Shown here: one piece after another, positions 37,549 to 58,200 of the stretch | How the letters are laid out: each line of letters starts with the position of its first letter | Position numbering within the stretch: the first letter of the stretch is position 1 | NCBI GenBank assembly: GCA_964467655.1 | Contig: CAYXSN010000005.1 | Span: forward strand, 16,920 to 80,919 | Length of the DNA stretch: 64,000 bases | Direction of reading: 5' to 3' | Source: an uncultured Candidatus Saccharimonadales bacterium | GTDB lineage: Bacteria > Patescibacteriota > Saccharimonadia > UBA4664 | The notes under the pieces: generated by a model | Told to the model about the DNA's origin: nothing | Database searches by the model: none | The model's input: the letters and a program-made list of their open reading frames with translations, nothing else | Program-made: the position numbers and the translations under genes

Positions 37549-39912
37549 CTAGCGACCGAGAGAAACTTCAGTTTGTTTAAGGTCGATAGTGGTCTTGATG
37601 ATGGTATCTGGAGCCAGCGATATGCTATCGATACCACACTGCACCAGGAAACGGGCAAATTCGGGATAATCAGACGGCGCTTGACCACAAAGCCCGATCT
37701 TCACACCCTTGGCTTTGGCGATTTTGATGACATGATCAATGAGCGACTTAACTGCCAGATTGTTCTCGTCGTACACATGCGCCACGGTATGGTTGTCACG
37801 ATCGACACCTAACGTCAACTGGGTCAAATCATTGGAGCCAATCGAAAATCCGTCAAACAGTTCCGCAAACTGTTCAGCCAAAATGACGTTGGCCGGAATC
37901 TCAATCATACAATACGCTTGGAAACCGTTCTCGCCACGCTTCAGACCGTTTTCGGCCATAATGTCCAGCACTTTATGAGCTTCATCGAGGCTGCGACAGA
38001 AGGGGATCATGGCCTTGATGTTGGTTAGTCCGTGCTCGTCGCGGGCCTTCTTGAAAGCCTTACACTCAAGCGCAAAGGCTTCGCGGTATTCTGGCGAATA
38101 ATAGCGGCTCGCGCCGCGCCAGCCAATCATGGGATTGTTCTCCTGTGGCTCGAATTGCTGACCGCCAATCAACCCCGCATACTCATTGGTCTTAAAATCG
38201 CTAAACCTAATGATCACATCATTGGGGTAAAACGCCGCGCCAATAATACTGATACCTTCACAGAGCTTGTCGATAAAATATTGCGATTTATCTTTGTAAC
38301 CAGCCGTCAGCTCATTGATCTGGTTCCGAACAGCCTTGTCGGTCACTTCGCCAAATTTCAGAAGCGCCAAGGGATGAACCTTGATATGGGAGTCAATGAT
38401 AAACTCCTCTCGGGCCAAACCAACACCATCGTTGGGAATATGCGAATAGGCAAAAGCGTGGTCAGGAGAACCGATGTTCATCATGATTTTGGTTTTAGGT
38501 CGTTCCAGGTTGGTAATATCTGTCCGTTTCACCTTAAACTCAAGCTTACCGGCATATACGTAGCCTTCGTCACCCTCGGCGCAACTCACGGTAATAGGTG
38601 CCTTGTCGACAATCTTAGCTGTGGCGTCACCAGTACCAACCACACAGGGGATACCCAGTTCCCGCGACACAATCGCCGCGTGGCAAGTCCGGCCACCTTT
38701 GTCGGTCACGATAGCGGCAGCCATCTTCATGATTGGCACCCAGTCGGGATCAGTCATCTCTGTTACCAGAACGTCTCCGGGCCGGAACGAACTAATGTCT
38801 TTGAGATCAACGATTTTGCTCGCTTTGCCAGCCCCGATTTTATTACCCACACTGGTACCTTTCACGAGCTGGTTACCCTTACCGACAAGCTGATATTCTT
38901 CGATAACATGAACATCCTTGCGCGACTCAACTGTCTCGCCGCGAGCCTGCACGATATACAGCTGGTTGTCGTCTTCATCTAAGGCCCATTCAATATCCAT
39001 AGGGTGACCATAATGCTTTTCAATCTCGATACCCCAGGCCGCGAGCGTTTTGACCTGTTCATCAGTGATAGCGTATTTGTCGCGCTCAGATTTGGGCACC
39101 GGCAAATTCTTGGTCTTTGAGCCCACGACAGGAACCATCCGCTCCTGCTTGGCGCCTAGGCGTTTCTTGAGAATAGCCATGGTTGGCTTAAAAACAGTAA
39201 ACTCATCGGGGCTGACGCGACCCTGCACGATGTTTTCACCCAAGCCGTAAATCGAAGTTACTACCACGGCATTTTTGAAGCCCGATTCGGTATCAATCGT
39301 AAACATGACACCGGCAGCTTTGGAACGCACGGCCACCATCTGTTGGATACCCACCGACAGAGCCACGCTCATGTGATCAAACCCATTTTCTACCCGATAA
39401 ACGATCGCCCTATCAGTAAAGAGTGATGCAATGCAGGCCTTGGTGGCGTGCAGCACCTCGTGCTCGCCTGAGATATTCAGGAATGTCTCTTGCTGACCGG
39501 CAAACGAAGCGTTGGGCAAGTCTTCAGCCGTAGCCGATGAGCGCACCGCCACCACTAGATCTTGGTGACCGCATATTTTGCTCAGTTCTTGGTATCCCTG
39601 CTTAATCTCGGATTCAAAATCCTCAGGCAGTGCCGAATTCATGATGGCGGAGCGAATTTTGGCCCCGCGCCGCCCAAGGTCAGCTACATCCTTGACATCG
39701 AGCCCCTCAAGAAGCGTCCTGATTTTGGCGTCAACACCTGAGCTTTTGAGAAAATAACGGTAAGCATCGGCCGTAGTCGCCAATCCGTTAGGCAGTTTCA
39801 CACCTTTTGGTGCCAAGTACTTCACCATCTCGCCGAGCGAAGCATTTTTACCACCGACTTGAGGAATATCGGTCAGCGAGACGTCTTTGAAGAACTTTAT
39901 GTGGCGGTACAT
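37549..39912 (-). CDS. ppsA: Phosphoenolpyruvate synthase (pyruvate, water dikinase)
   Basis: 787 aa; N-terminal ATP-grasp, central phospho-His domain (GGRTCHAAIVSRELGIPCVVG), C-terminal PEP-utilising TIM barrel. Confidence 0.85.
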   Translation of the reverse strand: MYRHIKFFKDVSLTDIPQVGGKNASLGEMVKYLAPKGVKLPNGLATTADAYRYFLKSSGVDAKIRTLLEGLDVKDVADLGRRGAKIRSAIMNSALPEDFESEIKQGYQELSKICGHQDLVVAVRSSATAEDLPNASFAGQQETFLNISGEHEVLHATKACIASLFTDRAIVYRVENGFDHMSVALSVGIQQMVAVRSKAAGVMFTIDTESGFKNAVVVTSIYGLGENIVQGRVSPDEFTVFKPTMAILKKRLGAKQERMVPVVGSKTKNLPVPKSERDKYAITDEQVKTLAAWGIEIEKHYGHPMDIEWALDEDDNQLYIVQARGETVESRKDVHVIEEYQLVGKGNQLVKGTSVGNKIGAGKASKIVDLKDISSFRPGDVLVTEMTDPDWVPIMKMAAAIVTDKGGRTCHAAIVSRELGIPCVVGTGDATAKIVDKAPITVSCAEGDEGYVYAGKLEFKVKRTDITNLERPKTKIMMNIGSPDHAFAYSHIPNDGVGLAREEFIIDSHIKVHPLALLKFGEVTDKAVRNQINELTAGYKDKSQYFIDKLCEGISIIGAAFYPNDVIIRFSDFKTNEYAGLIGGQQFEPQENNPMIGWRGASRYYSPEYREAFALECKAFKKARDEHGLTNIKAMIPFCRSLDEAHKVLDIMAENGLKRGENGFQAYCMIEIPANVILAEQFAELFDGFSIGSNDLTQLTLGVDRDNHTVAHVYDENNLAVKSLIDHVIKIAKAKGVKIGLCGQAPSDYPEFARFLVQCGIDSISLAPDTIIKTTIDLKQTEVSLGR

Positions 39913-41573: not shown

Positions 41574-42227
41574 TTGGCTTATCTTATGAGCACTCACGCC
41601 ACTATTGCCCAGAAAATCAGTTCTGCCAAATCGGCTGTATTGCGCCGCTATGCCGACTGGAGAGTTGGTGCTACCCGCGACGAAAAGTTTGTGTACCGTA
41701 CTTCACCCAACGTTCTACTTACGTTTGACGACTATGGTAGTGCCGATCAAATCAAGAGAATCCTCAAGGCTTTGCGCGCCGCCAACGTGAGAGCTATGTT
41801 TTTCCTGCAAGGCGACTGGGCGAGTGAGCACCCAGAACTCGTAACCAGGCTCGAAAGTGCCGGGCATATCATTGGCAATCACACCACCACTCACCCTAAT
41901 TTACTCGAATTGACCGACGAACAAGTGAAGCAGGAGATCTTGGATGGTCCCGACACCGAATTCGTGCGTCCACCTATGGGACGGTACAACCGGCGCATCA
42001 GGAACATTATCCACGGTCTCGGCAAAAAAATTGCCTACTGGAGCATCGACAGTGACGACTGGCAGGGAGTTTCAGGCGAGCAGATCATCGCCAAAGTCTC
42101 AAATGAGCTCCATCAGGGCGCCGTCATTCTCATGCACATTCATGCCGACAACACCATTGCCGTTTTGCCTGAACTGATCAAAACCATTCGTGATCGAGGT
42201 TTTGAGCTCGAACGTTCAGCAAATTAG
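41574..42227 (+). CDS. Polysaccharide deacetylase (NodB homology domain)
   Basis: LLTFDDYGS...GNHTTTHPNL...RPPMGRYN NodB motifs. Confidence 0.75.
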   Translation: MAYLMSTHATIAQKISSAKSAVLRRYADWRVGATRDEKFVYRTSPNVLLTFDDYGSADQIKRILKALRAANVRAMFFLQGDWASEHPELVTRLESAGHIIGNHTTTHPNLLELTDEQVKQEILDGPDTEFVRPPMGRYNRRIRNIIHGLGKKIAYWSIDSDDWQGVSGEQIIAKVSNELHQGAVILMHIHADNTIAVLPELIKTIRDRGFELERSAN

Positions 42228-42323
42228 CATCTCAGTATTGGTGTTTACTAAATAGGGCAGTTTCCGCCTATTTTTTGACCGGCTCGCATACGATACACAA
42301 TTCTTATGCTTAAATGAGAGTAT

Positions 42324-43139
42324 ATGAAACTACCAAAACTCAACCGCAAAGTCATTGTTGTAGGTTTAGGGCTAGCCCTCATCCTGGCTGGCGGAGGCTA
42401 TGCCTACACCCGCACACTCAATCAACCCGACAACCATACCGTCACCCAGCCGTCTACCCAAACTCCCACGCCGACTACCGCCAGCCCGGCGCCACCCAGT
42501 CCCAGCACAACAACAGGCCCAACACCGACTCCTACTACCACACCCCAACCCACTCCCAGTAAATACTTCACGCTCGCAGGCGATGCGACAGCCGATGGGG
42601 TCCAGCTTGACTGGGACGTGGCCGGCTACGACGTCAGCCAAGGATTCAAGCTCGCTATCGACAACTCTACTACCGGGACCTTTAGCAATTTCAAATACCT
42701 CTCGAGCCCAACCGTCAGGTCGGCCCTCTGGAAAGTTGGCGACGGCCAAACCAGGTACTTCAAAATTTGTGGCTACCACAAAGATGCCGGTAATGCAGTC
42801 TCTGGTACCACGGCTTGTTCCAACGTCATCAGTCTCGACACCAACAACGTAGCCGCCGAAACCAGCGGGTCCATCACGCTATTACCCTCAACTTCAAACG
42901 GCGGTTTCCATTGGATCACCGAAGGCTACGCACCCTACGGCTTCAGGCTTGTGTGGGCAGCCCACGCCAACCCCGCCTACCCGGCCGATCAGAGCCAAAG
43001 CTTCCAGCCAGTCTGGAGTAATGCCAGCTCAGGTAGCATTCCAAACACCACCGGTACTTGGTACGTCAAAGCCTGTATGATTACTGCCACCCAAGCCTGT
43101 AGTAATTACTCAGACGAAAAGACGATCACCATACAGTAA
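42324..43139 (+). CDS. Secreted protein with Pro/Thr-rich linker and Ig/FN3-like beta-rich domains
   Basis: N-terminal TM/signal, PT-rich low complexity, repeated beta-strand-like segments. Confidence 0.4.
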   Translation: MKLPKLNRKVIVVGLGLALILAGGGYAYTRTLNQPDNHTVTQPSTQTPTPTTASPAPPSPSTTTGPTPTPTTTPQPTPSKYFTLAGDATADGVQLDWDVAGYDVSQGFKLAIDNSTTGTFSNFKYLSSPTVRSALWKVGDGQTRYFKICGYHKDAGNAVSGTTACSNVISLDTNNVAAETSGSITLLPSTSNGGFHWITEGYAPYGFRLVWAAHANPAYPADQSQSFQPVWSNASSGSIPNTTGTWYVKACMITATQACSNYSDEKTITIQ

Positions 43140-43169
43140 GAACTATTTTATACTGAGCATGACTAGTTA

Positions 43170-43226
43170 TTACCGATAAACTTCCCAGCGATTACCAATC
43201 TTAATAACCTCGATCACCAACGTCAT
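43170..43226 (-). pseudogene. Remnant of relE/parE 3' end (last ~18 codons) fused to TA-promoter-like sequence
   Basis: 43171-43215 is ~93% identical to 45635-45680 (3' end of intact relE); encodes ...VIEVIKIGNRWEVYR* vs intact ...VVEIIKIGNRREVYR*; adjacent 43218-43240 matches operator-like sequence 46157-46180. Confidence 0.5.
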
Positions 43227-43266
43227 AGCGTCAAGACGCTATGCAGACGATGATACCCAACCTATA

Positions 43267-43704
43267 ATGAGCCAACCCACCTGCCAGCCGGCACATCCAT
43301 TCAGGCTAAGCGAATTGGTATATTTCGACAGCAATACCCAAATCAATCAAAGTTTCCGGACAGAGGATTGGGTCTACGCAATCAACGAATACAAATCAGA
43401 TAACCGCCATGGGTCCGAAACAATCGGCCATGCTGATCAAAACTACGACCCAAAAAGCACGAAACCAACATGCAGCATCCTCAAATCATCAGCTAATATG
43501 CCATATCGGCTGTGTCATTGGACCGATTATGACCGCATCAATGTATTTGAGGTTACATTCATTCGATCGGGCACGTTTGTTCGATCAACAATTCCTACTG
43601 ATCTAAACACCGATATTTCAATCACTGAAACCGGTGAGTTTGTGGACTCGTTTAGAGAGAAAAGTACTTTTGGCCTCCCGGTCCTGCGATCAAACGGAGC
43701 TTAG
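43267..43704 (+). CDS. Hypothetical protein
   Basis: 145-aa ORF inside the TA-repeat-bracketed insertion. Confidence 0.3.
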   Translation: MSQPTCQPAHPFRLSELVYFDSNTQINQSFRTEDWVYAINEYKSDNRHGSETIGHADQNYDPKSTKPTCSILKSSANMPYRLCHWTDYDRINVFEVTFIRSGTFVRSTIPTDLNTDISITETGEFVDSFREKSTFGLPVLRSNGA

Positions 43705-43978
43705 CCACAGACGTTAGAACTCCCCGCATGTTCGAACGATCCAATTCAGCTATACTTGCGGATAGCGCTGAGGAGCAGCGCATGCCAAAATAGCTCGTTC
43801 TTGTTAACTCATCAACCACAGCCAAGGAACCAATGACAAGTGAATGGGGTGGCAGCAAGCAGCCATTCAATCGGTCGGTTTCGAATGGGGACTGCCGAAA
43901 TTGGTCTACTTGAAATCACCCCAATGCCAGAAATGTAAACCAGATCAAGATATACGCTAACCACCAGAGGATAATCAA

Positions 43979-44419
43979 ATGACAACCATCAATCCGTACA
44001 TTAATTTCAACGGCAATGCCGAAGAAGCTTTTAATTTCTATAAGTCAGTGTTCGGCGGAGAGTTTGCGGGGGTTATTCGTTTTAAAGATATAGCCAGCGC
44101 AGAGTTCCCGGTATCCAAAAAAGAGGCAAACAAGATAATGCGCATTGTGCTCCCCATCGGTACGAACGTCTTGATTGCGAACGATGTACCTGAAGCCATG
44201 GGGCGAGTAGACGAAAACGAAAATAGATCCAAGATCGCAATTACGGCGGAAAGCAAGGCAGAGGCGGACAGGATTTTCAATAGTCTTTCAGAGGGTGGGA
44301 CCGTTGAGATGCCAATTGACGAAAGTCCCTGGGGCACCTACTTTGCTATGTTTCGAGATAAATATGGGATTGAATGGACGATAGAGTGTGACATCCCAGG
44401 AAGTATAAACAACAGCTAA
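43979..44419 (+). CDS. VOC/PhnB-like protein (second paralog)
   Basis: INPYINFNGNAEEAFNFY N-terminus, same family as 8101..8562. Confidence 0.55.
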   Translation: MTTINPYINFNGNAEEAFNFYKSVFGGEFAGVIRFKDIASAEFPVSKKEANKIMRIVLPIGTNVLIANDVPEAMGRVDENENRSKIAITAESKAEADRIFNSLSEGGTVEMPIDESPWGTYFAMFRDKYGIEWTIECDIPGSINNS

Positions 44420-44607
44420 CGACCCAAACCGGATCGTTATGAGCATAAGAACATTGGTACCGCTGGTCGTCAGATGGCTTTGTTACCTGCCTGCGACAAC
44501 AGTCTAAATAATCACATTTGAAGACCGTCGGCGCATATGGTATAGTCCGCCTGTCTCAATAGAGATTTCAGCCTGGCATAAGCCACCAACTATTCCGAGG
44601 TGACATC

Positions 44608-45531
44608 ATGCAAGACGCCACTACCGCCGCCGTTCGCGCGACCATCGAGCCCAGCGTTGCAGCCTACCTGTTCGGCAGCACCGGAGCCCTGGGGGTTGCT
44701 CTGACGGCCGCGTCGCGATCACTTCACATCCTGGCATCCACCGGGCAGAAGCTGGGCGACTTGCCATATTCAGACATGTCCCACCAGCTCCAGCTCGTGC
44801 GTTCCAGCGGCCTGCCATGCGTATGGGTCCCGGCACAGGGCTATGAGCTGGACGCCGACGAGCGCGACGCACGGTACCAGATGGACAGCCGGACACGATC
44901 TCCCAAGACGCCCGATCCGGCCGATCGAGCAGTCAGTGGCGGTCGCTCATACGCGAACACGTATCCGTTCTGGCTGCCCATCGCCGGGCAACCGGCCATC
45001 TTGGTCAGGAAGGACGATCTGGCTTATTGGAACTGGCCTCTGTATCTGGGCCTCAATGACCTCCCCGTCGGCCTGTTCGGCTTCAGCGTCAACGTGGCGC
45101 TCCAGACCGATACCGGCAATTGCGAGGTCGACTGCAACCAGATCGCCCAGGTCCTGGCCGCCATCGGCCTCGGCGACTACACCGGCGATCAGCTGGCCGC
45201 CCACATCGCTAGTGACGTCAACGACCTGCCGCCAGATTTCCGGCTCAGCGACCAGCACAGCTCTGCACGCGTTCACCTGAACGCTTGGGACGGCACTCGC
45301 CGTCCGCTCTGGGCGCGCGACATCAACAATAACCTCGTGCGCAACGGCTCGGTGCTGGTGCAACCAGCTGGTGCCACGGAGGAGTGGCGGCTGCCGCGCT
45401 TCTTGCGCTTCACGGTGAGTCGAACGCAAGACTCGTTCGGCTGGCCGCACGGCATCATCTACGAGCCCGAGGAGCGGGCCAGTCTGTACGCCGTCGCTGA
45501 CAGGATCGCAGCAGCATTCAACGCCAGCTGA
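44608..45531 (+). CDS. Hypothetical protein encoded in a ~65% GC segment (probable horizontally acquired gene)
   Basis: 307-aa ORF with strongly GC-biased third codon positions; local GC well above the ~50% window average; spurious long ORFs on other frames typical of high-GC DNA. Confidence 0.5.
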   Translation: MQDATTAAVRATIEPSVAAYLFGSTGALGVALTAASRSLHILASTGQKLGDLPYSDMSHQLQLVRSSGLPCVWVPAQGYELDADERDARYQMDSRTRSPKTPDPADRAVSGGRSYANTYPFWLPIAGQPAILVRKDDLAYWNWPLYLGLNDLPVGLFGFSVNVALQTDTGNCEVDCNQIAQVLAAIGLGDYTGDQLAAHIASDVNDLPPDFRLSDQHSSARVHLNAWDGTRRPLWARDINNNLVRNGSVLVQPAGATEEWRLPRFLRFTVSRTQDSFGWPHGIIYEPEERASLYAVADRIAAAFNAS

Positions 45532-45550
45532 GACGACCGGCTCATCGGCC

Positions 45551-45584
45551 GTCAGGGGCTTCCGGATGTCCGGAAGCCCCTGAC
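45551..45584 (+). terminator. Perfect 16-bp GC-rich hairpin (gtcaggggcttccgga-tg-tccggaagcccctgac) after the high-GC ORF
   Basis: Exact inverted repeat read from sequence; no T tract (style typical of high-GC genomes). Confidence 0.5.
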
Positions 45585-45633
45585 GCCTAAGGCTCTGATA
45601 TCATACCGATATGGCATCCACCACAAAGCAAAT

Positions 45634-45888
45634 CTACCGATAAACTTCCCGGCGATTGCCAATCTTAATAATTTCGACCACTAGTTGCTCATCTGTAATT
45701 GAGTATATAACCCGATAGTCGCCAATCCTGATCCGCCACGCTTCCACTCCGATCATTTTCTTCACACCATGAGGCCTAGGATCATGCGCTAGGGAATCAA
45801 TCAATTCCGAGACCTGCTTTCGAGCAGCAATAGGCAACTTGCGTAACTCCTTAGTGGCACTAGTCCGAAATATTACCGAATAAACCAT
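45634..45888 (-). CDS. relE: RelE/ParE family toxin
   Basis: 84 aa; ...IRIGDYRVIYSITDEQLVVEIIKIGNRREVYR C-terminus typical of RelE/ParE; 3-nt gap to upstream antitoxin. Confidence 0.7.
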   Translation of the reverse strand: MVYSVIFRTSATKELRKLPIAARKQVSELIDSLAHDPRPHGVKKMIGVEAWRIRIGDYRVIYSITDEQLVVEIIKIGNRREVYR

Positions 45889-45891
45889 CCG

Positions 45892-46146
45892 CTAAAGCAG
45901 CCCGTCTCGCACTAAATCGGCCTTGACTTTGTCCCACGCAAGCAACGGCTCAGCCTTGCGCTCCTCTACAGTCGCTGCATCCTCGGCATCTTCTAGAAGT
46001 TCAGCAAGTTGATCATTAATCAGCTCCGAGATGGATTTATTTTGCTCAACCGCTTCGTGTTGCAAATATTTTTTGACGTAAGGATTTAAATAAACAGTTG
46101 TTCGCTCTGTGAGGGTAGCCATAGTGCTCTCCTTAATTGATTTCAT
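45892..46146 (-). CDS. Antitoxin (ribbon-helix-helix/CopG-like) of RelE/ParE module
   Basis: 84 aa, acidic C-terminus, immediately upstream of relE on same strand. Confidence 0.55.
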   Translation of the reverse strand: MKSIKESTMATLTERTTVYLNPYVKKYLQHEAVEQNKSISELINDQLAELLEDAEDAATVEERKAEPLLAWDKVKADLVRDGLL

Positions 46147-46156
46147 TTTATCTTAA

Positions 46157-46180
46157 CAACGTCATAACGTCAAGACGTCG
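46157..46180. promoter_or_regulatory. TA operon operator-like repeats (aacgtcat aacgtcaagacgtcg)
   Basis: Direct/inverted ACGTC repeats just upstream of antitoxin start; near-copy present at 43218-43240. Confidence 0.35.
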
Positions 46181-46519
46181 TTAGAAGTGTCATCCGCGCC
46201 AACGGGTATATCAATGCTGGTTTGATAAGGTCTACCTATGAAATCGATAACTGTATGATGTAATCGATACTGGAGCACTCTCATGCCGGCTTCCTCAACT
46301 GCTTTTTACGTGAGGCTTCTTATCGTCGAAAAAAAACAGATGGATTGAAGCCAATACACCTGCCGCTTCCCGAAATGATTCGGAAGACTTCTTGCTGAGG
46401 CTGGATGACTCGGCGGTGTAGACCTCAACAAATATGTTCACAAGTCTTCGGAAAGATCAGCACTCGCGAAAAATAGTAATTATAGCTTTCATAGGATTAC
46501 CTATAAGCCAATGAGTCGG

Positions 46520-46556
46520 TGCTAGCCGAACCGGCGACGTTCGAGTCCTCCGGTGA
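46520..46556 (+). other. tRNA 3'-end-like fragment (GTTCGAGTCC T-loop-like box), possible att site remnant
   Basis: cgacGTTCGAGTCCtccggtgatca has canonical T-loop sequence but 5' T-stem/acceptor partner absent, so not a full tRNA. Confidence 0.25.
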
Positions 46557-46560
46557 TCAT

Positions 46561-46599
46561 ATTAAAATAACCCAACCGAGAGGTTGGGTTATTTTAATG
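46561..46599. repeat. Perfect 17-bp inverted repeat hairpin attaaaataacccaacc-gaga-ggttgggttattttaat
   Basis: Exact palindrome read from sequence, adjacent to tRNA-like fragment in a 560-bp non-coding gap. Confidence 0.5.
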
Positions 46600-46704
46600 G
46601 TACACCATAGTCACAGATGTTCGAACCAGAATTAGGGAAGAAAAACTAGGAGCACCGCTCAACAACCTATAGCCCACTAAGCTCCGGTATCCGATACTAG
46701 TGCT

Positions 46705-49097: not shown

Positions 49098-49808
49098 ATG
49101 ACCAAACCTTACGGAATGAAAGCTGAGCTTAAAGATTACCCTTGGCGTGATTTGCGTGAAGAGCTGGACCTCAACGACATACACCTCAAAATCGAAAACG
49201 GCGCCCTAGAAGTCGGCTATGACCGAGAGGAAGATGAGGCAAAAGCTAAGGAGGTAGCCACGCTATATCTACAAACCCATAGTCTGCGTATGGGCTTTAA
49301 AGTCGCGGCCAACTTCAACCGTACATGGAAGCCAACCCCAGCTGGCGGAGTAGCCCATGCCATGGCACTTCAAAGCTCAGTAAAATTTAACGATCGCTTG
49401 CAGGCAACAATCCACCAAGCCACAATCTCCGGTCGTGCCCGTATCGTCAGCCAACAAATGGTAGACACCGCCAGTTTCACTAACGACACTCTCATGGTGC
49501 AAAAAGCTTTGAAAGACCCGGCGCTAAAGCAGGCTATAGCATATTTCGGTGACGAAGTAGCCGATGCCAGTAAGCCCCTCTACGGCGTATACAAAGCCAT
49601 CGAATCCATAACCAACCACCTTGGCAAACAGGGCCGTAAAAAGCTAGCCCAACTGGCTAGCCAGAGCGAATCATACATCTCCGACCTCATGGAGACCACA
49701 CAGTACAGCCGGCATGCAGTTACTCAAGCTCGCCAGCACCTAACCGAGAAGGAGTGCATTACGCGAGCAAAGACCCTAATTGAAGCTTATGCACGGACAA
49801 TTAGCTAG
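49098..49808 (+). CDS. Hypothetical protein (236 aa)
   Basis: ORF downstream of motif copy 2. Confidence 0.4.
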   Translation: MTKPYGMKAELKDYPWRDLREELDLNDIHLKIENGALEVGYDREEDEAKAKEVATLYLQTHSLRMGFKVAANFNRTWKPTPAGGVAHAMALQSSVKFNDRLQATIHQATISGRARIVSQQMVDTASFTNDTLMVQKALKDPALKQAIAYFGDEVADASKPLYGVYKAIESITNHLGKQGRKKLAQLASQSESYISDLMETTQYSRHAVTQARQHLTEKECITRAKTLIEAYARTIS

Positions 49809-49875
49809 CTTTGCTAACTACCAGAGGCATTAAGGGCATACTGGACGGAACAGACAACTGCAACCCGATTATTCA

Positions 49876-50487
49876 CTAGTTGGTTGTTGGTTCGCTCTCG
49901 GGCTTATCTAATGAGCTGAGAAGTTTGATGGTGGTGTATCTTTTTGGGGTTCCTGCCGCAACAAGTAATGTTAACCCGAGCCAAATAATTGCCAGTATCC
50001 ATCCGCCAACCGGGTCGAACCCGACATCAAATTTGGGGTTTCTAACGAATGCAGCAATTAATACAAGCAGTACCAGCGATATAACGACATTTCGCACGGC
50101 TTTAAACAGATAAACTCTTGGCTCTATATATTTTGGCGCCTCATCCCGGTAGACGTAAGCATCAAGCATCGTTTGATCGTAGTTTCTGTTCTTCAGATAT
50201 TCCTTAACAGCGAGATACCTTACTGATTGTTGCTTCATTCGCCCAACTGCCGAAAGAAATTCTGTATGAATATCATTTTGGTATCCGGCCAACCTAACGG
50301 CTACCTCATGAGATACCTCAAAGCGTTTTTCAAAATCTTTAGCCGTTAGCACTACCGCATGCTCAGATGACTTCGAAATTGGTCCGGGGGTTTCGTCACC
50401 TATATAAATCTCAGATGCATCCGAAAAGCCTATGTAAATTTCGCAGTAGACCTCAGCCGTCAAATCGATTGCGGTAAGCTTCTTCAT
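49876..50487 (-). CDS. Hypothetical protein with two C-terminal TM helices
   Basis: Start at internal ATG 50487 preceded by GGAGAG RBS; C-terminal hydrophobic helices. Confidence 0.4.
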   Translation of the reverse strand: MKKLTAIDLTAEVYCEIYIGFSDASEIYIGDETPGPISKSSEHAVVLTAKDFEKRFEVSHEVAVRLAGYQNDIHTEFLSAVGRMKQQSVRYLAVKEYLKNRNYDQTMLDAYVYRDEAPKYIEPRVYLFKAVRNVVISLVLLVLIAAFVRNPKFDVGFDPVGGWILAIIWLGLTLLVAAGTPKRYTTIKLLSSLDKPESEPTTN

Positions 50488-50533
50488 ACTGGATTCTCTC
50501 CTTGGTTCCATTGCCACTGCAGTAAAATCCTAT

Positions 50534-50893
50534 CTAGAAGACATCGTAAGGAGAAAGTATTACTCCGCCATCGCTATCGAGAACCTGCCATTTTTCCTTC
50601 TTCCGGAACAAAGTACGCTCAAGTTTAACCTTGCCTTCCAGGATTGATGCCAGACCCTTGAGCATCACCTGTTTGGGTTCGTCCTGATATATACAATTCT
50701 TATACTCGATATGGATAAAATCCCAATCTCCTTTTGGCAAATGAACGACGCTGACTTTTGCATCAAATTTATCATCGTGAATTACGACATCGCCAAAAAC
50801 CCTATCATTTGAGGAATGCTCGTTATATCTGTACTCGACGCCGCGATCCGATAACAACTGTTTTAATTCTTCGGGCATGTTATTTTCTTTCAT
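50534..50893 (-). CDS. Immunity-like small protein, paralog C of Rhs-associated array
   Basis: C-terminal LEGKVKLERTLFRKKEKWQVLDSDGG aligns with paralogs at 50890..51291 and 51909..52289. Confidence 0.45.
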   Translation of the reverse strand: MKENNMPEELKQLLSDRGVEYRYNEHSSNDRVFGDVVIHDDKFDAKVSVVHLPKGDWDFIHIEYKNCIYQDEPKQVMLKGLASILEGKVKLERTLFRKKEKWQVLDSDGGVILSPYDVF

Positions 50894-51291
50894 CGAGGCG
50901 AGAATTGCTCTAGCGCAGCGGCGGGCACTTTTCGACTTTCAGGATTTATGCGCTGCCAAACATCGAGTTCTTTTCCCGACTTATCGGTAAAAATATATTG
51001 TTTTTTCCTTGTGAGCGTCAGCTTCACGACATATTGTTTTTCGAGAAGCGCGCGGATTATCAACTCATAAATTTCATCAGGGTTATCTGGAAATTCATTT
51101 CCCCCAAATCCGATAGAGATAATCGACCAAGCGTCATTCTTTTTAAGCAGGTATATGTAGATTACGCGATGTTCATTTTTATTGTCTCTAATCGTTACCG
51201 TCAAACTCGTACTATCTACGCCTACGGATGGCTGCTCAATAGAGACGTCGTATTTGTCCTTAATTTGATCTAGTAATTGCGTTATGGTCAC
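50890..51291 (-). CDS. Immunity-like small protein, paralog B of Rhs-associated array
   Basis: GTG start at 51291 with GGAGGG RBS; C-terminal LEKQYVVKLTLTRKKQYIFTDKSGKE aligns with paralogs; upstream extension in track ORF rejected. Confidence 0.45.
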   Translation of the reverse strand: MTITQLLDQIKDKYDVSIEQPSVGVDSTSLTVTIRDNKNEHRVIYIYLLKKNDAWSIISIGFGGNEFPDNPDEIYELIIRALLEKQYVVKLTLTRKKQYIFTDKSGKELDVWQRINPESRKVPAAALEQFSPR

Positions 51292-51334
51292 TTTATTTTC
51301 CCTCCTACTAGGAAATCGAACGGTAAGGGCACAC

Positions 51335-51793
51335 TTAATAAAGCCTGTTTGCCCAGGACTGATTGAAGACGGCCTCCGTGGTCTCAGTTCTGCCCACATC
51401 CTCACCGATTTCTATTTCGGTCTGTTTATCCCATTGCTTTGGTAGCGAGCGAGTTTGGTTACCATCCGCCTTAAACACTGCCGCCCTAAGAATGTTGCCA
51501 TCAAGCTCTTCTGTTATCAGCTTCGCTGCTTTAGGATTACCCGTAACATATTCGTAGTACTTTAAGCCGCTATCAACCCTTTTTCTAAGCATTATCAGCT
51601 CAGTGGCAAAAAGAACTACTTCAAGAACTGTCCCCGCCGCATCGGTCGCCTTATATTCGGATTTTGGCTCAATGAAATGTTCCAGACCTCCTTCAAGATC
51701 GGCTAGGTCTTTATATGTTTCGGTTTTGCCGTCATGCCCGATGGTTATCGGGAGTTGGGGTTGGTAGTTTTGAGGGTTAACTATGATATGCAT
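51335..51793 (-). CDS. Small hypothetical protein in immunity gene array (distinct family)
   Basis: ATG with GGAGG RBS 7 nt upstream; 152 aa. Confidence 0.4.
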   Translation of the reverse strand: MHIIVNPQNYQPQLPITIGHDGKTETYKDLADLEGGLEHFIEPKSEYKATDAAGTVLEVVLFATELIMLRKRVDSGLKYYEYVTGNPKAAKLITEELDGNILRAAVFKADGNQTRSLPKQWDKQTEIEIGEDVGRTETTEAVFNQSWANRLY

Positions 51794-51908
51794 TTTAGAA
51801 CCTCCATGGTGACTGTAATCTCATATTCGGCCTACATTTGCATAATGTTCCGACCAATCTTACCCATGTATGGGGTCAACTCAAGTCACGCCCCACCAAG
51901 AAAGAGAC

Positions 51909-52289
51909 CTAATCTCGAGGCCAATATTCTTTTCCAGACTGGCCCGTCACAACATATTTTTTTTGACCAAAGCCAAACAATGTTTTTTTCTCGGCTATTT
52001 TCCCCGATAATATGCCATCGAGTGCTTCAAATAAGCTTTCTGGGCTTTCGTCGGTGTATTCTCCGTTGAGATATTTCACCGCAATCAATTGCGCGCCTAG
52101 GGAATTATTTTTATTCTCGACGAGTTCCACGACTACGACATTGTTCGAGTTACCTGGGCGAATCTCGATCTCCATAAAGCTTAGGTTGGGACTTTCTTTG
52201 CTCGCCGTTAAAGGCCGAGTTACCTCACATTGCCCTGAATATTTTTGAGCGAGTTCTTCAACCCTATTAACTGCATTTAATTTAGCCAT
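51909..52289 (-). CDS. Putative cognate immunity protein of Rhs toxin (paralog A)
   Basis: Starts 2-5 nt after Rhs stop with GGAGGAAGG RBS embedded in Rhs 3' end; C-terminal LSGKIAEKKTLFGFGQKKYVVTGQSGKE motif shared with paralogs B and C. Confidence 0.5.
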   Translation of the reverse strand: MAKLNAVNRVEELAQKYSGQCEVTRPLTASKESPNLSFMEIEIRPGNSNNVVVVELVENKNNSLGAQLIAVKYLNGEYTDESPESLFEALDGILSGKIAEKKTLFGFGQKKYVVTGQSGKEYWPRD

Positions 52290-52291
52290 TT

Positions 52292-55200
52292 CTACCACCT
52301 TCCTCCTACGATGAAGTCCCAGTGACGATCTTTACCGCGCCACTTCCAACCAGCACGGAAAGTCTGGCGGTTACCCGGAAAGCGCGACCACCCTAACTTG
52401 AAACTTCCATAATTATTTAGTTTACCGGCACCACTGCCCAGAGTTGCGTGTCCAAAGAGCTTACTATTTACCCCAATGACCGGCATTCGTGACTGTACAC
52501 GCGCCAACTTAGTACTAACCGCTTCAACTCCCTTAAGAAACATCCCCGCCCTACCGGCATTTACCGCCTTTGCTGCAACCTTGGTCAACAAGCCCGCGCC
52601 CACCAAACCACCAGCAGCAACCAACGCCTCCCCGTACCGTCCCTGAGCGACATTCCCTGCGACAGCAACCGCAGAGCATGCTATGCCGATCGGACCAGGT
52701 ATAAACGAGCCTATTGTAGCAACTGTGGTAACAACTTTTGCCGCAGCCTTAAACTTGTCCCAGAATCCAGCATTCCCATCTAAGTCGAAACCGTTTACTG
52801 GATCAGTCGGGTACACATAGCCGTTCTCGTTTCCACCCTCCTGCGGATCGACCTGGAGGAACCTCCCAATCTTCGCCAGGTACACCCGTGCCCCCATCTC
52901 AGTCGGAGCAAGAGCAAAGGCTGTTTCGGTGTCCTTTTCGTGCTGACCGACCCAGCCATAGGTAGAGCCGGTTGCGGTGTTGTTGGGGGAGCTAGCGACC
53001 GGGTTACCGAAGGGATCGTACATGAAGGTACCCGTTTGCGTACCATTGGCGTCGGTGGTTGCCATAGTGTCGCCATGAACATTGACGAGGGAGAAGACGC
53101 GGTTAGCCGGAGCTGTTTGGTTCGGTCGTACAGTCAGAAGAACTCCACCGGGCAGTTGCTCATACTTCTCGACGATGGCATTGCTTGCATCGAGGAGTAG
53201 ATCGGGAGAGTCGCCAGCGCCCGTAAACCCATACTTGTTGGTAGTCGTAGAGCCATTGACCAGCACCCGCTGGATAGTCCTACCCTGGACATCGCGAGTG
53301 TAGGTAGCAGACTTGCTACCTACAGTAATCGAGCTGTTGCGATCACTTGAATCGTACGCAAACTGAGTGACAGGCGTGGTGCCAATTTGAGTGGTGTTGC
53401 CATGCGCATCGTAGACGGGGCTCGTGACGGAGGCATCGGAGCTACTTACGAGGCGGTCAGCGTAATCGTAACAGTAGGTCGTCGTGACCCCATTTACCGT
53501 TTGGCTGGTTCGGTTGGAGTTTTTGTTGGCATTGGCATTGTAGGTACCCGTGCAACTAGTAGGGGAGCCAAAACCGTAGCTGTAGGTATTTGAGCCAATG
53601 GTCGCAGAGGTTAGGCGGCCTGCTTTGTCGTAAGTGTAGCTCTTGCTTTGACCAAGCTCGGTGCCAGAGATGATTTGGCCGGATTGGCTGCGAGTAACAG
53701 CGTCGGTAACATGCGTCGTACCATTACCGAGCGTGTAATCCATGCCCACCGTCCGGCCGAGAGAGTCGCGGGAGATGGCCAGAGCTTGCGAGCCAGCGGT
53801 AGGGTAGGTGACGCCTGACAGGCGACCGTAGCCATCGTAGCTCGGAACCGCCTGGGTAACCCCGTCGAGGGTTTGGGTGGTTAAACGATTGTAACTATCG
53901 TATGTGAACCCTTCTGCGCCGAGCGGACCGGAACGCGAGCTGAGGCGGCCGAGAGAGTCGTAGCTCGTTGTGGTGGTCTGGTTGTTGGCGTCGGTGTAGC
54001 TGACTGTACGGCCAAGGAGGTCGCTAGTGCTGGTAATGGTGCCATTAGCATCGGCCGTGCTCACAACGAAGGGATTACCACCAACGGACCAGTTGTTAGT
54101 GACGGTGCGGGCCGGAGCGCTACCAAAGGCCGGGATGGCAACTTGTGTGACTCGGCCGCGAGAGTCGTAGGTGGTGCAAGTCCAGGAATCACTATTGTAG
54201 CGAGTAGCCACCACCCGACCAGCTGCGTCGTAAACTGTTTCAGTGGTACGGCTAATTTGAGCGCCAGCTCCATCTGGGTCGGCTTCAGCCTTGAGCTTCA
54301 GCATACCTGCCTGGCTCACGGCCGCTCCGCCCACGCAGGGGTTAGCCCGGGTTTCGGTGGCACCGTAATAGGCGTATTGCGTACTCGGGTTACCTGCATC
54401 GTTGCCCGGCAGCACCTTAGTGAGCTGCCGCAAGTAGCTACCGCTAGTGCCTTGGGCTTCGTAGGTACTTGAGCTAGTGTAGTTGAGACCAGCAGAATCG
54501 AGGGTATTGGACTGTGCGAGGCCGAGCTCGGGATTAGCGCCGTAATTGGTAGTCGATTGCGTATCACCAACCGCAGCGCTTGAGTCAAAGGTCTTTTGGC
54601 TCGTCGCTAGTCCGTAACGGGGCGTCAAGATCGAACCAAGCACGCTCGTCTCACTCCCACCCGGCGCGGTCTTGAACAGTTCCAGATGACCGTCGGCGTC
54701 GAGCGTGGAGCCGACGGCTTTATTGTAATAGTCGAGCCGGACGCGGTGCCAGGAGTTGGCGGTCGGATTCGTGAACACGCCAACGGTATGGTCGCGGTAA
54801 ACACCGTCAGCCCAATCATCAGCCACAAGAATATCGTCAATCCAGAGGCGGGCACCATCGTCGGACTTAACTTTGAAAGTGTGGTCGCCGGTTTCGGCCA
54901 GCTTAATTGAACCGCTCAGCCGCAAGCCCCAACCGTAAGTGGACTGGCTCGGCGTAATGGGCTGCGTCGAGCCCCAATTCTTCACCACATCGCCGTTTGT
55001 GGGGCCAACGCCAGTTTGGTGGCTCCTGGGGGCGCCGGTGAGGACCTTGGTGCTCACGCCGGTGCCATTGGTAGCAATTGCGACGTCGTAGTAGGTGGCG
55101 GCTAGGCCGGTAATGCCCTCGTCATAGCCAGTTTGCGTATGGGGAGTTGAGCTGACATTAGCCGTCAGCGGCTTGCGGTCGGTCCCATACCAACTGCTCG

Positions 55201-58200
55201 GAGCGGGGCCATATTGATCCGTCGGCCGGTCGTCCTCGTCATAGATAGTAGTGGACTTGAGTCCAGCCGCATCCGTCGAAGAAAGCACCATATCCTTGCG
55301 AGGTGCCCCCGTAGTTGGGTCAACATCCCACTCGGTCTTGGTGGTGAGTCCAGATAACCAGCTCGACGGCGTACCAAAGGTTGTTCCGGTTGAAATACCA
55401 GCCATAATCTGGTCACCACCCGCCCCGGCGGTGCCGTTATTGAACGAGCCGAAGTCGGCCTTACCGTCAGCGTTTGCATCACCCGTAAACGGCTTCATGC
55501 CAAACCAGTTCCATCCCGCTAGGCTCTGAACATAGGTGGTGCTGTTAGCCAACGGTGAGCTCGCTCCATACAGGGTATGAAGGTCAGTGCCGCTCGGTGT
55601 ACTGTGGACCAATGCTACGTCATCATAAGCATCGCCATTAAAGTTGCCCGCAGCCAGGTTTACCTTCGACCAAACCCAGCCATTTGCAGCAGGGAGGCTG
55701 CGGATGTAGGTCGAGGTATTAGCGAATGGTGTCGTACCACCATTGAGCATATGAACATCAATGCCGTCACTGGCTACCTGATGGAAGATAGCCACGTCAG
55801 AGTAGCCATCGGCGTTAAACTTCCCGCCCGCCAGTTTCATCTTGGACCAGGCCCAACCGTTTGAAGCCGGTAAGTTTACTACCCAGGTAGAGCTATTGCC
55901 GAAAGGCGTCGAGCCACCGTAGAGGGCGTGTATCCCGACACCATCATCAGAGAGCTGATGGAAGATAGTAAGGTCAGCTTTACCATCACCGTTAATATCA
56001 CCAGGCACCAGCTTGAACTTGGACCAGGCCCAACCGCTAGAAGAGGGCATATTGCGTAGTAAGGTGGGGCTGTTATTGGAGGGTGAGCTGGTTCCATATA
56101 GTGCGTAGACATCGGCCCCGTCTCCGGTGGCCTGTCGAACCAAAGCTAGATCAGCTTTCCCATCGCCGTTAAAGTCACCCACAAGGGGCTTGATGCCATC
56201 CCAGCTCCAGCCCGGCAGGTTAGCCCAACGCACCAGCGGTTGGTAACCGCTACCCGTAGATGCTGCAAACATAACCTCCGAGCCACTCGCACCGCTGGCA
56301 CCGTTGTTGAGCAAGGCAACATCGGCTTTACCGTCGCCGTTAAAGTCACCCGTGATGGGGATCGTGCCGTTCCAGTTGAAGCCGTACTGCTCAGTATCGG
56401 TCAGCGTGCGATACGTTGTATCGTACGTGACTTTACGACCTCCGGTTACGGCAGTATCCGGGTGCATGATGGTGTAGCCAGCATCGCTACCAGCAGCCGA
56501 GTAATAGCTGTAGCTATGAGACTGATGAGCGGCTCCAGCAGTAGCAGCGGGCATGGTTATGCTTGAAACGCGGCCAATGGCGTCATAGGAAATGGTCGTA
56601 AGCTCGTTTCCATCCTGAGTACGAACGCCAGCCGAGATAGCATCATTCGCCAACGAATCCCGCATCGATGTGATGCGGCCGAGCGAATCAAAGCCATAGT
56701 CGCTAATCTCACTCCCGGGGTGGATTAGCCGAGCAAGCCGCCCCGTAGACGAGTAGGCAAACTGCGTAACCTGGCTGTCTGACGTAGTAACCGCACAAAT
56801 CATGCCAGCTGGTACGGCCGAGAAGCCCGAGGGAACCGAAGGACATCCGGCGTCGCCACTGTAGTAAACCTTAGCCCAACGACTTGAATCTACCCCATCG
56901 GTAACCTGGGTGAGATGGGCAGGGAGACCACTGTAACTGTACTGCAAAGCCGCCGGATTGCGATCGTCAGCCGGGCTCGTGCTCAGCTTGAGCGTGCCGT
57001 CAGTGTCGAAGACATAGGTACGGCCATCACTATCCTGGAGAGTGATGGTGCCGTCACCATTGCGGACCATGTGGCCGGTCTCGTTGACCGGAGGCGTGTA
57101 GCCCGAGCCGGTCCATTTATACTCATGCGTTTCACCGGTCGAGTCACGCAGAACCACACTATTTACGCCAATGGTCGCAAAATCATAACCAAGATCGCCA
57201 TCGGCATCAATGCTTAAGCCCCAGCCATCTGGCAGCACTTGAGCCTGCGGCAGCAGCCAGTCCGACGGCACCGGTAGGGTCTTGTCGATACCTGGCCCAT
57301 CAACATAGAGTCCAAGACTGGCATTGCCAGTCACCTCACGGTATTCAACCGTGATCGACTTAGTCTGTCCGGCAGTCATGGTGACGCCAGTTGAACCCGG
57401 CGCAGTCGTTGGCCAAGCGGGTGAGGTGGTGGAAGTAGACCAGTTATCGAGCTGGGTTACGCCATCCACGATAATCTTGATACCATCATCGGCCTGACCG
57501 CCAAACTTATAGGTGCCGTCTTGGGGTGCCTTAAAGTACCCCGACCAACGCACTACAAAGTTGTCTGCTGGCCCGTTTGGTACCGGCGAACCAGCACCCC
57601 AATCCATCCCGAGCGTCGTGTCAGTACGAGCCAAGAAGCGGCTACTGACATCCGACTCGCTCGAAGGGAATGAGCTTCCGGTGTAATAACGCCCGATGAG
57701 ACCGTGCGGCGTAGCCACTGGCCGCACCCCGGTCTGAAGCCATTCAGTTGGCACAACTTGGTCAGAGAAGCCAACGCCGCGAACCCATAAACTGTTATAA
57801 GCTGCTCCAGTCGCCTCGGTGTAATCAACCGTAATGGGCACGGCCTGACCAGCCGTCAGGGCAACTCCCGTTCCCCAATGTTGGTTGGTGTAGCAACCTC
57901 CGCTGGTCGTATCCAGGACTACCTGACTATTGAGGGTAACTTTAACCGTATCATCACCAACACAGCCCATCGTGTAGGTGGTGGTATAGGGAGCCACAAA
58001 GTAGCCGCTCCAGCGAGCGCTAAAGTTATCTGTCGTTACCATGCCGGTGTACGGAGAGCCGGTATTCCAGTTGTAGTCGACGTTGGGCTCGACTCGGGTC
58101 AAAACGGGGTTGCCGGAAAAGGTGGTGTTGTTCCAGTACTGTGCTACCAGACCCTGGCGAGACCGTTGCGGCGAGTTGTAGTCAAGACCGATGCCCAAGC

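Follow-up and report, generated by a model that had tools for sequence, protein, structure and literature searches.

Decayed integrative elements known as cis-mobilizable elements (CIMEs) accrete in tandem at the 3' ends of tRNA genes (PMC5704250; Pavlovic et al. 2004 as cited there), and the ssrA islands of Dehalococcoides, also arranged in tandem, are delimited by direct repeats (20 bp) that copy the 3' end of the tmRNA gene (PMC3146451). A locus with related features was analysed here in a 64,000-nucleotide stretch of DNA, called the window below, from an uncultured Candidatus Saccharimonadales bacterium (contig CAYXSN010000005.1, positions 16,920 to 80,919). In this locus, a GC-rich orphan gene of 307 codons (ORF307) lies between an intact RelE-type toxin-antitoxin (TA) locus and the fused remnant of a second copy. 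The explanation that we favour, and hold to be fairly probable, is that ORF307 joined an array of small cassettes linked to a tRNA-Leu gene, in an event separate from the older decay of the TA copy.

As in the CIME arrays, elements devoid of integrase and transfer genes lie between repeated attachment (att) sites beside a tRNA 3' end, newcomers enter at the att site in which the tRNA gene ends, the arrays vary between strains, and hybrids resembling attB, attP, attL and attR are all seen. Copies of the tRNA 3' end stand at the boundaries, the hybrid sites are reciprocal, and no recombinase was found in the open reading frames (ORFs) scanned. Unlike CIMEs, the units are very small, at 0.4-2.7 kb with one gene or two, identity with the tRNA often extends over just TGGTAC (15-19 nt in the copies called T and T* below), conserved arms lie on either side in the repeat, which spans about 55-95 nt, no cognate integrase was found, and the host is a bacterium of the Candidate Phyla Radiation (CPR) with a genome below 1 Mb. 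The Dehalococcoides islands share with the present locus a high-plasticity zone downstream of a single small-RNA gene, 3'-end copies at the boundaries, extra conserved nucleotides beside the repeat and the existence of islands without integration genes; however, they measure about 10-30 kb, many with a serine-recombinase module, whereas single-gene cassettes with no visible module of this kind are found here.

Chromosomal (sedentary) integrons likewise have site repeats in the same orientation that separate cassettes of 0.5-1 kb (the spacing here is 415-2709 nt). Their cargo is similar (RelE/ParE, YoeB and PIN TA pairs, GNAT, VOC/glyoxalase and orphan proteins), the TA cassettes have their own promoters and new cassettes enter at one privileged end. 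In contrast to integrons, neither an IntI integrase nor an attI site is present, the docking site is a tRNA 3' end, and the junction repeat (named U) has no RYYYAAC...GTTRRRY inverted core, does not fold as an attC hairpin and is conserved in sequence, not in structure. The assignment to integrons, tested on IntI and attC, was rejected, and the array is classed here as a variant of the tRNA-linked accretion arrays. Literature searches for integron-like arrays, or for arrays linked to a tRNA, turned up no precedent in Saccharibacteria.

The genomes of Saccharibacteria are very small and are usually portrayed as streamlined and as relying on a host bacterium. The locus described here is a compact, fast-changing cassette array kept in the population of such a small-genome epibiont, with at least five separate indels within strains that are 98-99% identical (ORF307, a methyltransferase, YefM-YoeB, an inositol monophosphatase together with a short-chain dehydrogenase, and the loss of the TA locus). 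Its precise junctions can be used for assays of gene flux by polymerase chain reaction or at the level of reads in an uncultured CPR lineage, and an orphan, compositionally foreign gene with native-like predicted expression signals makes it a case for asking where such cells get new genes. To judge from protein identities, the source organism is a relative of the Saccharibacteria/Saccharimonadales, because its pyruvate phosphate dikinase (PPDK), encoded at 37549-39912, shares 84% identity with that of the metagenome-assembled genome (MAG) MFD04944.bin.2.55 and 74-79% with those of many Candidatus Saccharibacteria/Saccharimonadales MAGs. An organism of this kind had been suspected in an earlier note on this DNA, made by a model from the sequence alone.

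The inserted segment and the second toxin-antitoxin copy

Sister alleles of the locus were recovered by exact-sequence lookup of the neighbouring proteins and then through the members of their 90%-identity clusters; strains and contigs are labelled L019, L020, L106, L109-L125 and so forth (L120 is JGI Ga0490005_003923). Comparison with these alleles delimits a strain-specific insertion of 1168 nt at 44461-45628 (+ strand), which comprises ORF307 with its own promoter-bearing leader of 147 nt and its hairpin, and which is absent from L106, L119, L120, L121, L122, L123 and L124. These seven contigs with an empty site represent three sister backgrounds (L119 and L121 are two further ones), with flanks 98-99% identical. 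L120 is 99.06% identical to the window over 41575-44460, a region holding the TA remnant, a truncated gene named h145 and a PhnB-like gene; after 44460 it has 37 nt (GCCACCGTCACAGACGTTAGAACTGCCGTTCGGACGT) and then resumes at 45629 with 98.5% identity. The empty site reads PhnB-like gene, X, TGGTAC, H (37 nt), CAAAT, relE, where X and H denote the left and right halves of U (junction sequence ...AACATTGGTAC / GCCACCGTCAC), whereas the occupied site in the window reads PhnB-like gene, X, TGGTAC, 1168 nt, CAAAT, relE. The insertion stands in place of the 37-nt H half-repeat found in the sister strains, with its left edge at the TGGTAC junction repeat and its right edge 5 nt outside the relE stop codon (..TGGCATCCACCACAAAGC / AAAT, also given as ..CGATATGGCATCCACCACAAAGC / AAAT). 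An imperfect 8-nt duplication at the segment ends (AGATGGC / ATATGGC) was considered as a target-site duplication and discarded as not significant.

The polymorphic unit is 44461-45628, and the TA remnant, h145 and the PhnB-like gene are older and independent. The earlier note had read the DNA between the TA copies as a single insertion of 2.3-2.4 kb with the TA sequences as recombination flanks. Since the remnant, h145 and the PhnB-like gene all occur in L120 without ORF307, the 2.4 kb between the TA copies are not one insertion, and the limits of the real indel lie elsewhere than in the TA sequences; a presence/absence polymorphism among related genomes was found, as anticipated, but it concerns the 1168-nt unit and not 2.3 kb. 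The acquisition of ORF307, which had also been proposed, is supported as a recent one by its absence from three sister backgrounds with 98-99% identical flanks.

The same limits bear on the possibility that a circular element carrying a RelE/antitoxin copy integrated in the Campbell manner at the TA locus, bringing in the whole 2.4-kb block, and that one copy was later reduced by deletion. Highly significant direct TA repeats do bracket the block, and the 43.0-52 kb neighbourhood, including the block apart from ORF307, mostly has a GC content of 0.43-0.50, lower than the 0.518 of the window as a whole. Yet the block is not one unit, as the L120 allele shows; L119 has a stub of the remnant upstream of a full-length counterpart of h145 (h184) and a YefM-YoeB cassette between h184 and the PhnB-like gene; h145 comes from a native family and stands directly beside tRNA-Leu in L109; and the indel ends at 44461 and 45628, not at the TA repeats. 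We regard an integration of this type as highly improbable.

The exact ORF307 protein was found on 12 contigs from the ENA megahit and Logan assemblies of different samples, and SPAdes contigs, reached through the neighbouring genes, cross both junctions of the segment. The aligned contigs are 100% identical to the window over both junctions, with mismatches at contig ends only. Because the junctions of the GC-rich segment are identical in independent megahit, SPAdes and Logan assemblies (about 10 samples), in which contigs of 15.7 and 82.8 kb span the segment, a chimeric assembly is ruled out. It is hardly conceivable that assembly or binning joined a high-GC fragment in silico to a Saccharibacteria contig, even though the GC step is abrupt and some short contigs stop close to the segment. 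In three samples (SRR20074300, SRR14234036 and SRR14234052), Logan contigs break off at 44453, 44480 and 45624, which is compatible with a branching assembly graph, that is, with a second context for the segment ends or with a circular form.

The second TA copy survives as two directly abutting pieces within 43171-43238. At 43171-43217, 42/47 nt are identical to the 3' end of relE (45635-45681), and at 43218-43238, 20/21 nt are identical to a piece of the TA promoter (46157-46177). When 300 dinucleotide-preserving shuffles per query were compared with the whole window on both strands, the maxima were 29/47 and 18/21, respectively, and the fused repeats that the earlier note had noticed are far beyond chance. 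The relE remnant (43168-43217, minus strand) measures 47 nt, or 50 nt with its own TAA stop at 43168-43170, instead of the 57 nt first estimated; it encodes the last 15 residues of RelE (VIEVIKIGNRWEVYR before the stop, against VVEIIKIGNRREVYR in the intact gene). The promoter/operator remnant (43218-43238, minus strand) is a 21-mer spanning the -35 hexamer TTGACG and 11 nt of the spacer with the GACGT repeats of the TA promoter; the -10 is gone from the fused copy, where GAGGTT occupies its place, and the promoter stub is 25/27 identical to the TA promoter of L118.

Both ends of the 545-bp TA module are retained and the 475 bp in between are missing. In agreement with the proposal made from the sequence alone, a second RelE/antitoxin copy gave rise, by deletion, to 43168-43238. 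L120 carries the remnant identical at 140/140 nt, with the relE piece 100% conserved, and as it does so without ORF307, the remnant is older than the ORF307 insertion and independent of it. In L119, 59 nt starting at the promoter stub (window 43218-43276) are 96.6% identical and lie upstream of full-length h184; no relE tail precedes the stub, which alone remains, in an unchanged position with respect to the gene next to it. Window/L120 and L119 carry two different deletion derivatives of one ancestral TA copy transcribed divergently from h184. Since L119 keeps the stub only and window/L120 the tail plus stub, the second copy decayed independently twice.

On the minus strand of 43168-43238, the stub and the relE tail together make an ORF of 18 codons (MTLVIEVIKIGNRWEVYR) with no -10 upstream, and this ORF is probably meaningless.

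ORF307 and its hairpin

ORF307 (44608-45531, + strand; 307 aa) has a GC content of 0.646, with 0.66, 0.50 and 0.79 at the three codon positions (GC3 0.786), whereas the highest GC3 in the 56 other tabulated ORFs is 0.656, and the description of this ORF as a high-GC outlier holds. It is the sole stop-free frame of six, with a single terminal stop, and its product contains 1% Lys and 12.7% Ala and one weakly hydrophobic N-terminal stretch (Kyte-Doolittle mean 1.5). The GC step starts at the start codon and stops after the hairpin; the 147-nt leader (GC 0.49) and the 43-nt trailer (GC 0.47) are native-like. A sigma-70-like promoter with a TG element (TTGAAG-17-TATAGT; 44518-44546, + strand) was predicted by promoter scan inside the inserted segment, and a Shine-Dalgarno (SD)-like GAGGTG precedes the ATG, signals from which ORF307 would be expressed.

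Between the convergent ORF307 and relE genes lies a perfect inverted repeat (45550-45585), whose arms (45550-45566 and 45569-45585) are 17 nt long, 100% complementary and GC at 12/17 positions; the predicted fold has an energy of -23.2 kcal/mol (z = -8.9). The hairpin had been described as perfect and without a T tract, which was borne out, and as 16 bp long and GC-only, which was not. No T run flanks it on either strand and the terminator scan omits it; nearby native terminators carry A/T tracts (e.g. 46561-46598). As it has a stem but no U tract, it was rejected as an intrinsic (Rho-independent) terminator; it probably insulates the convergent ORF307 and relE transcripts from each other. Terminator hairpins that lack a U tract occur commonly in Actinobacteria, though they are not specific to this group.

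A search of 5.8 billion protein clusters and 1.84 billion representatives gave no homologue of ORF307 beyond the protein itself and spurious repeat-protein matches; in all, about 15 billion proteins yielded none. The HMMER matches P0002 and P0003 were rejected as such, being long tandem-repeat proteins with summed scores and 23-33% identity over short pieces. A word-index search returned the protein itself only, no family model of Pfam, NCBIfam, PHROGs or PADLOC matched, tblastn against plasmids and phages and a scan of IMG/VR found nothing, and the single-sequence AlphaFold (AF2) model was uninformative (pLDDT 31.7). The earlier note had favoured a high-GC, possibly actinobacterial donor. No homologue turned up in low-GC relatives, as it had expected, but none was found in Actinobacteria or elsewhere searched either. 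Among the signs of a horizontally acquired gene, atypical composition and presence/absence polymorphism were found, and homologues in a donor lineage were not. The features that would point to a high-GC source are the composition and the T-tract-less hairpin.

We consider it quite improbable that ORF307 is an ancestral gene lost from the other strains, or a GC-rich stretch that is not a gene. Such readings could draw on the single ORF307 genotype without diversity and on the lack of a homologue and of a confident fold; moreover, high-GC DNA gives long chance ORFs, and overlapping ORFs of 145 and 167 aa do exist. However, the empty alleles have an intact, conserved U, so that a loss must have recreated the consensus in at least three backgrounds. 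The GC values of the three codon positions, together with one open frame of six, are the coding pattern of a high-GC genome, and the promoter-like site, the SD-like sequence and the hairpin are in the right places.

Junction repeat, tRNA-Leu(CAA) and the cassette array

Copies of U were sought by a pattern scan of metagenomes and with an nhmmer profile. The repeat has the form AAGCATAAG-N5-TGGTAC-RCCAYNGTCACAGAYGTYMGAAC..., extends over about 55-95 nt and is preceded in several copies by a hairpin; about 20 full copies, plus half copies, were found. In the window, an H-type half (CACAGACGTTAGAAC...GTTCGAACG) lies at 43704-43738 (+ strand) and an X-type half, matched by nhmmer, at 44417-44460 (+ strand), the latter composed of a hairpin, GAGCATAAGAACAT and TGGTAC (44455-44460). 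The X half (43 nt) recurs with 100% identity behind another gene in L119, with 92% behind a GNAT gene of L110 and with 88% in L114. Same-strand arrays with the spacing given above occur in L110 (three copies), L115 (three), L116 (three), L118 (two to three), L119 (four) and L120 (three). In 79 of 80 other Saccharibacteria PPDK neighbourhoods no U was detected by nhmmer, the exception being a marginal X-half match in L020 (E = 0.017); of these 80 neighbourhoods, only that of L019 shares more than PPDK with the window, namely the TA pair and tRNA-Leu. The cargo between U copies includes RelE/RHH, YefM-YoeB and VapBC modules, PhnB-like VOC, GNAT and Fic proteins, a methyltransferase, inositol monophosphatase, short-chain dehydrogenase and orphans.

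Read on the + strand, the hexamer TGGTAC also forms the 3' end of tRNA-Leu(CAA). At the left junction of the insertion, 44455-44469 (+ strand) is a 15-nt exact copy of this 3' end (TGGTACCGCTGGTCG), identical to the tRNA 3' ends in L106, L109, L119, L120 and L019, and the inserted DNA opens with CGCTGGTCG right after TGGTAC. Further along, 46500-46636 (+ strand) holds a conserved relic element, a bidirectional terminator hairpin (46561-46598), and TGGTAC with an H half-repeat, at a place where sister strains have TGGTAC and tRNA-Leu. From 46598 on, the window reads terminator-TGGTAC-ACCATAGTCACAGATGTTCGAACC, whereas L106 and L120 have tRNA-Leu after the same hairpin; an equivalent hairpin stands ahead of the tRNA-Leu of L109. 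Two independent breakpoints between the window and its sisters (44460/1 and 46603/4) fall directly after TGGTAC, and the sequence lost at the ORF307 site and that gained at 46604 both belong to U. The tRNA-Leu(CAA) gene is absent from the window. It stands intact at the array end in L109, L119 and L120, and it adjoins the array or the TA locus in L019, L109, L119 and L120; the gene beyond it encodes a sortase in L019 and L120 and is an unannotated ORF of 200 aa in L119.

With O for TGGTAC, Y for the terminator hairpin and T* for a copy of the tRNA 3' end followed by non-tRNA sequence, five junction classes were distinguished: X-O-H (17 copies), Y-O-tRNA-Leu (L106, L109, L120), Y-O-H (window 46598, L119 8275), X-O-tRNA-Leu (L119 10039) and X-O-T* (window 44455, L106, L109, L120; the T* copies of L106, L109 and L120 have 19 nt). 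In L119 the order is TA, terminator-TGGTAC-H, inositol monophosphatase, X-TGGTAC-H, dehydrogenase, X-TGGTAC-tRNA-Leu. All four reciprocal hybrid sites are seen, which is the set expected from an attB x attP exchange at O and therefore suggests site-specific recombination. Reciprocal exchange at O between a site at the tRNA end and one borne by a cassette, with tandem accretion afterwards, would leave this pattern.

These observations fit a scenario in which about 43.1-46.6 kb would be part of a hypervariable array of small cassettes, separated by U and accreted at the 3' end of tRNA-Leu(CAA). Two RelE/RHH modules would once have stood in this array: the intact one (45634-46178) and another that decayed through the 475-bp internal deletion before the compared strains diverged. 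Later, the 1168-bp unit was joined to the chromosome at precisely the TGGTAC of the U copy that separates the PhnB-like gene from relE, and it took the place of the H half. The most likely mechanism, we infer, is attachment-site recombination of the tRNA-Leu type with a recombinase acting in trans. ORF307 and its hairpin may have been captured earlier from an organism of high GC content (roughly 62-67%) and may then have circulated as a cassette among Saccharibacteria, and the TA modules would be cargo that stabilises the array, not a substrate of recombination.

A credible alternative, which we nevertheless hold to be unlikely, dispenses with a dedicated recombination system. U would be an ordinary conserved intergenic sequence and TGGTAC a microhomology, and ORF307 would have arrived by natural transformation followed by illegitimate or microhomology-driven joining, or by allelic replacement through homologous crossovers in the PhnB and TA flanks, with a strain already carrying the gene as donor. 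Saccharibacteria are reportedly naturally competent, no recombinase was found, no att site can be recognised at the right junction, and the mosaic of L119, at 99% identity in h145/PhnB and 86% in the TA region, is typical of homologous exchange. On the other hand, such joining would have to account for two independent breakpoints exactly after TGGTAC, for the existence of all four reciprocal junction classes, for an inserted segment that opens with 15 nt of the tRNA-Leu 3' end, and for ordered same-strand U arrays ending at tRNA-Leu.

Several points weigh against the accretion of ORF307 at tRNA-Leu-type sites. The right junction, tried as a degenerate TGGTAC-H, gave a local alignment score no better than chance, and because it resembles TGGTAC-H only weakly, the ORF307 event did not yield a clean product of attP x attB exchange. 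The left end of the segment resembles the T* block of L106 minus 32 nt internally, the order of the blocks depends on the strain, and the window is without the 66-nt T* block that L106 and L120 carry at 46494; the arrangement calls for two steps or more, or for a permutation of blocks. No integrase or recombinase was found in the ORFs scanned in the window, in the array-bearing loci or next to tRNA-Leu (the contig ends 1.8 kb past the window). U shows no consistent fold and matches no Rfam family, tRNA included, and some U-flanked genes are housekeeping-like (thymidylate synthase, inositol monophosphatase). One ORF307-bearing genotype was seen, with no sequence diversity from which to read selection, and since no homologue of ORF307 was found, its foreign origin is argued from composition and strain distribution.

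As a tentative and rather doubtful extension, U could be the recombination site of an undescribed gene-cassette capture system of Saccharibacteria, integron-like in function and different in build. Insertion, excision and reshuffling would take place at TGGTAC, with the 3' end of tRNA-Leu(CAA) as the dock and a recombinase in trans; TA modules would hold the array, and foreign genes such as ORF307 would be taken up, possibly from the host bacteria of these epibionts. If U were indeed such a site, the cassette system would lie outside the integron paradigm.

Other identities were considered for the repeat. The H half-repeat as a tRNA fragment was rejected by Rfam, by ARAGORN and by manual parsing, in which no T-arm appeared, although TGGTAC...GAAC loosely parallels a tRNA 3' end. 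U was also rejected as an attC site, a dif site or an IS200/605 end, with no matching cores, palindromes or transposase. A scan of viral contigs for U found nothing.

Some further features of the array were recorded. L119 has, at 5943-6531 (window 43720), a YefM-YoeB cassette of 589 nt inside the H half-repeat just after h184, which is not in the window. On L116, a contig of 39% GC, three U repeats lie within 1.1 kb (104-1141), implying cassettes of 415-570 nt. An element of about 60 nt with GTTCGAGTCC (46500-46560) precedes the bidirectional terminator and is common to L106, L109, L119 and L120; on the + strand it is loosely like a tRNA T-arm and acceptor end, and neither ARAGORN nor Rfam makes a tRNA call.

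Intact toxin-antitoxin locus and neighbouring genes

The intact locus resembles RelBE type II modules in its upstream gene for a candidate RHH-like antitoxin, the 3-nt gap before a gene for a toxin of RelE/ParE fold, the sigma-70-type promoter overlapping short GACGT repeats, and the C-terminal ...RREVYR motif of the toxin. It differs from them in an antitoxin that falls below the curated cut-offs and in the existence of one copy reduced to promoter stub plus toxin tail, with no coding capacity. The toxin of 84 aa (45634-45888, minus strand) scores above the RelE/ParE family threshold (PF05016, 49.1 bits against a cut-off of 23; TIGR02385, 28.3 bits against 27.9; phrog_1213, E = 1.5e-22). The antitoxin of 76 aa (45892-46122, minus strand) has its most likely start, as in the gene callers, at the ATG at 46122 behind AAGGAG, although the mechanical ORF reaches 46146; its RHH/RelB matches remain below the cut-offs (PF20605, 18 bits against 27.2; NF046040, 24.3 bits against 50). 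The antitoxin-relE pair is conserved in L019, L118 and L119.

According to the promoter scan, TTGACG-17-TAAAAT (46173 to 46145; feature 46145-46177, minus strand) is the one good sigma-70-like promoter that precedes the antitoxin gene. It is conserved with its GACGT repeats in L019, L118 and the remnant, and the repeats overlapping it are a plausible candidate for an autoregulatory operator. The limits of homology, 45629/34 to 46177/8, are the same in comparisons with L106, L118/L113 and L019 (74-98% identity) and with the remnant, and the TA module behaves as a discrete unit of 545 bp amid changing surroundings. In L019, the closest genome, tRNA-Leu and the PPDK gene enclose an orthologous TA pair (87% and 71% identity at the amino-acid level) that is oriented as in the window. 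The locus has long resided in the zone beside the tRNA.

The TA locus is lost or replaced in some strains: in L121 (767-830), U follows the PhnB-like gene, then come only 9 nt of relE tail (CTACCGATA) and unrelated genes. Directly upstream of the TA promoter, L106 (139-971) and L120 (3520-4236) carry a cassette for a methyltransferase of 238 aa, whereas the window, at 46179-46499, and L119 have 321 nt of non-coding DNA; the break at 46178 is the outer edge of the TA module. L119 7310-8317 is 86% identical to window 45629-46640, across the TA module up to the terminator, against 99% in h145/PhnB, and the sharp boundary of this mosaic at the U repeat suggests allelic exchange between strains.

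Beyond the terminator, the DNA from 46604 is probably a large integrated element. It runs for more than 17 kb to the end of the window at 64000, and the contig goes on to about 65.8 kb (L125), at a place where the sisters have tRNA-Leu and then the sortase gene. This stretch opens with TGGTAC and the H half-repeat and contains unannotated ORFs, together with an RHS/PA14/YD-shell protein of 2610 aa (52292-60124), an XRE-type HTH protein, a DUF5659 protein and a Toprim primase-like protein of 723 aa. Directly upstream of the giant RHS-type gene, 49800-52300 is a run of small minus-strand ORFs with no family matches, whose GC of 42-45% is far lower than that of the window overall. No tRNA and no homologue of the sortase, the dehydrogenase or the methyltransferase was found anywhere in the window.

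On the other side of ORF307, h145 (43267-43704, + strand; 145 aa) is, by family alignments, a decayed member of a native Saccharibacteria family of about 180 aa that has lost its 5' end. The family counts 38 homologues of 166-190 aa, one of them annotated from a Saccharibacteria MAG. Compared with the h184 of L119 (184 aa), h145 has a 5' deletion of 129 nt between two TGAGCC repeats, which removed the start codon and the membrane anchor, and a compensating 1-nt insertion that puts it back in frame. Its first 19 residues (43267-43330) are an out-of-frame translation, and the product would lack the membrane anchor. The next gene (43979-44419, + strand) encodes a PhnB-like VOC (glyoxalase-superfamily) protein of 146 aa, as had been recognised from the sequence; its matches are above the cut-off (PF06983, 40.0 bits; PF00903, 44.2 bits), and a member of its cluster is named 'PhnB protein' by JGI. 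Relative to L106, this gene shows four synonymous and two non-synonymous changes.

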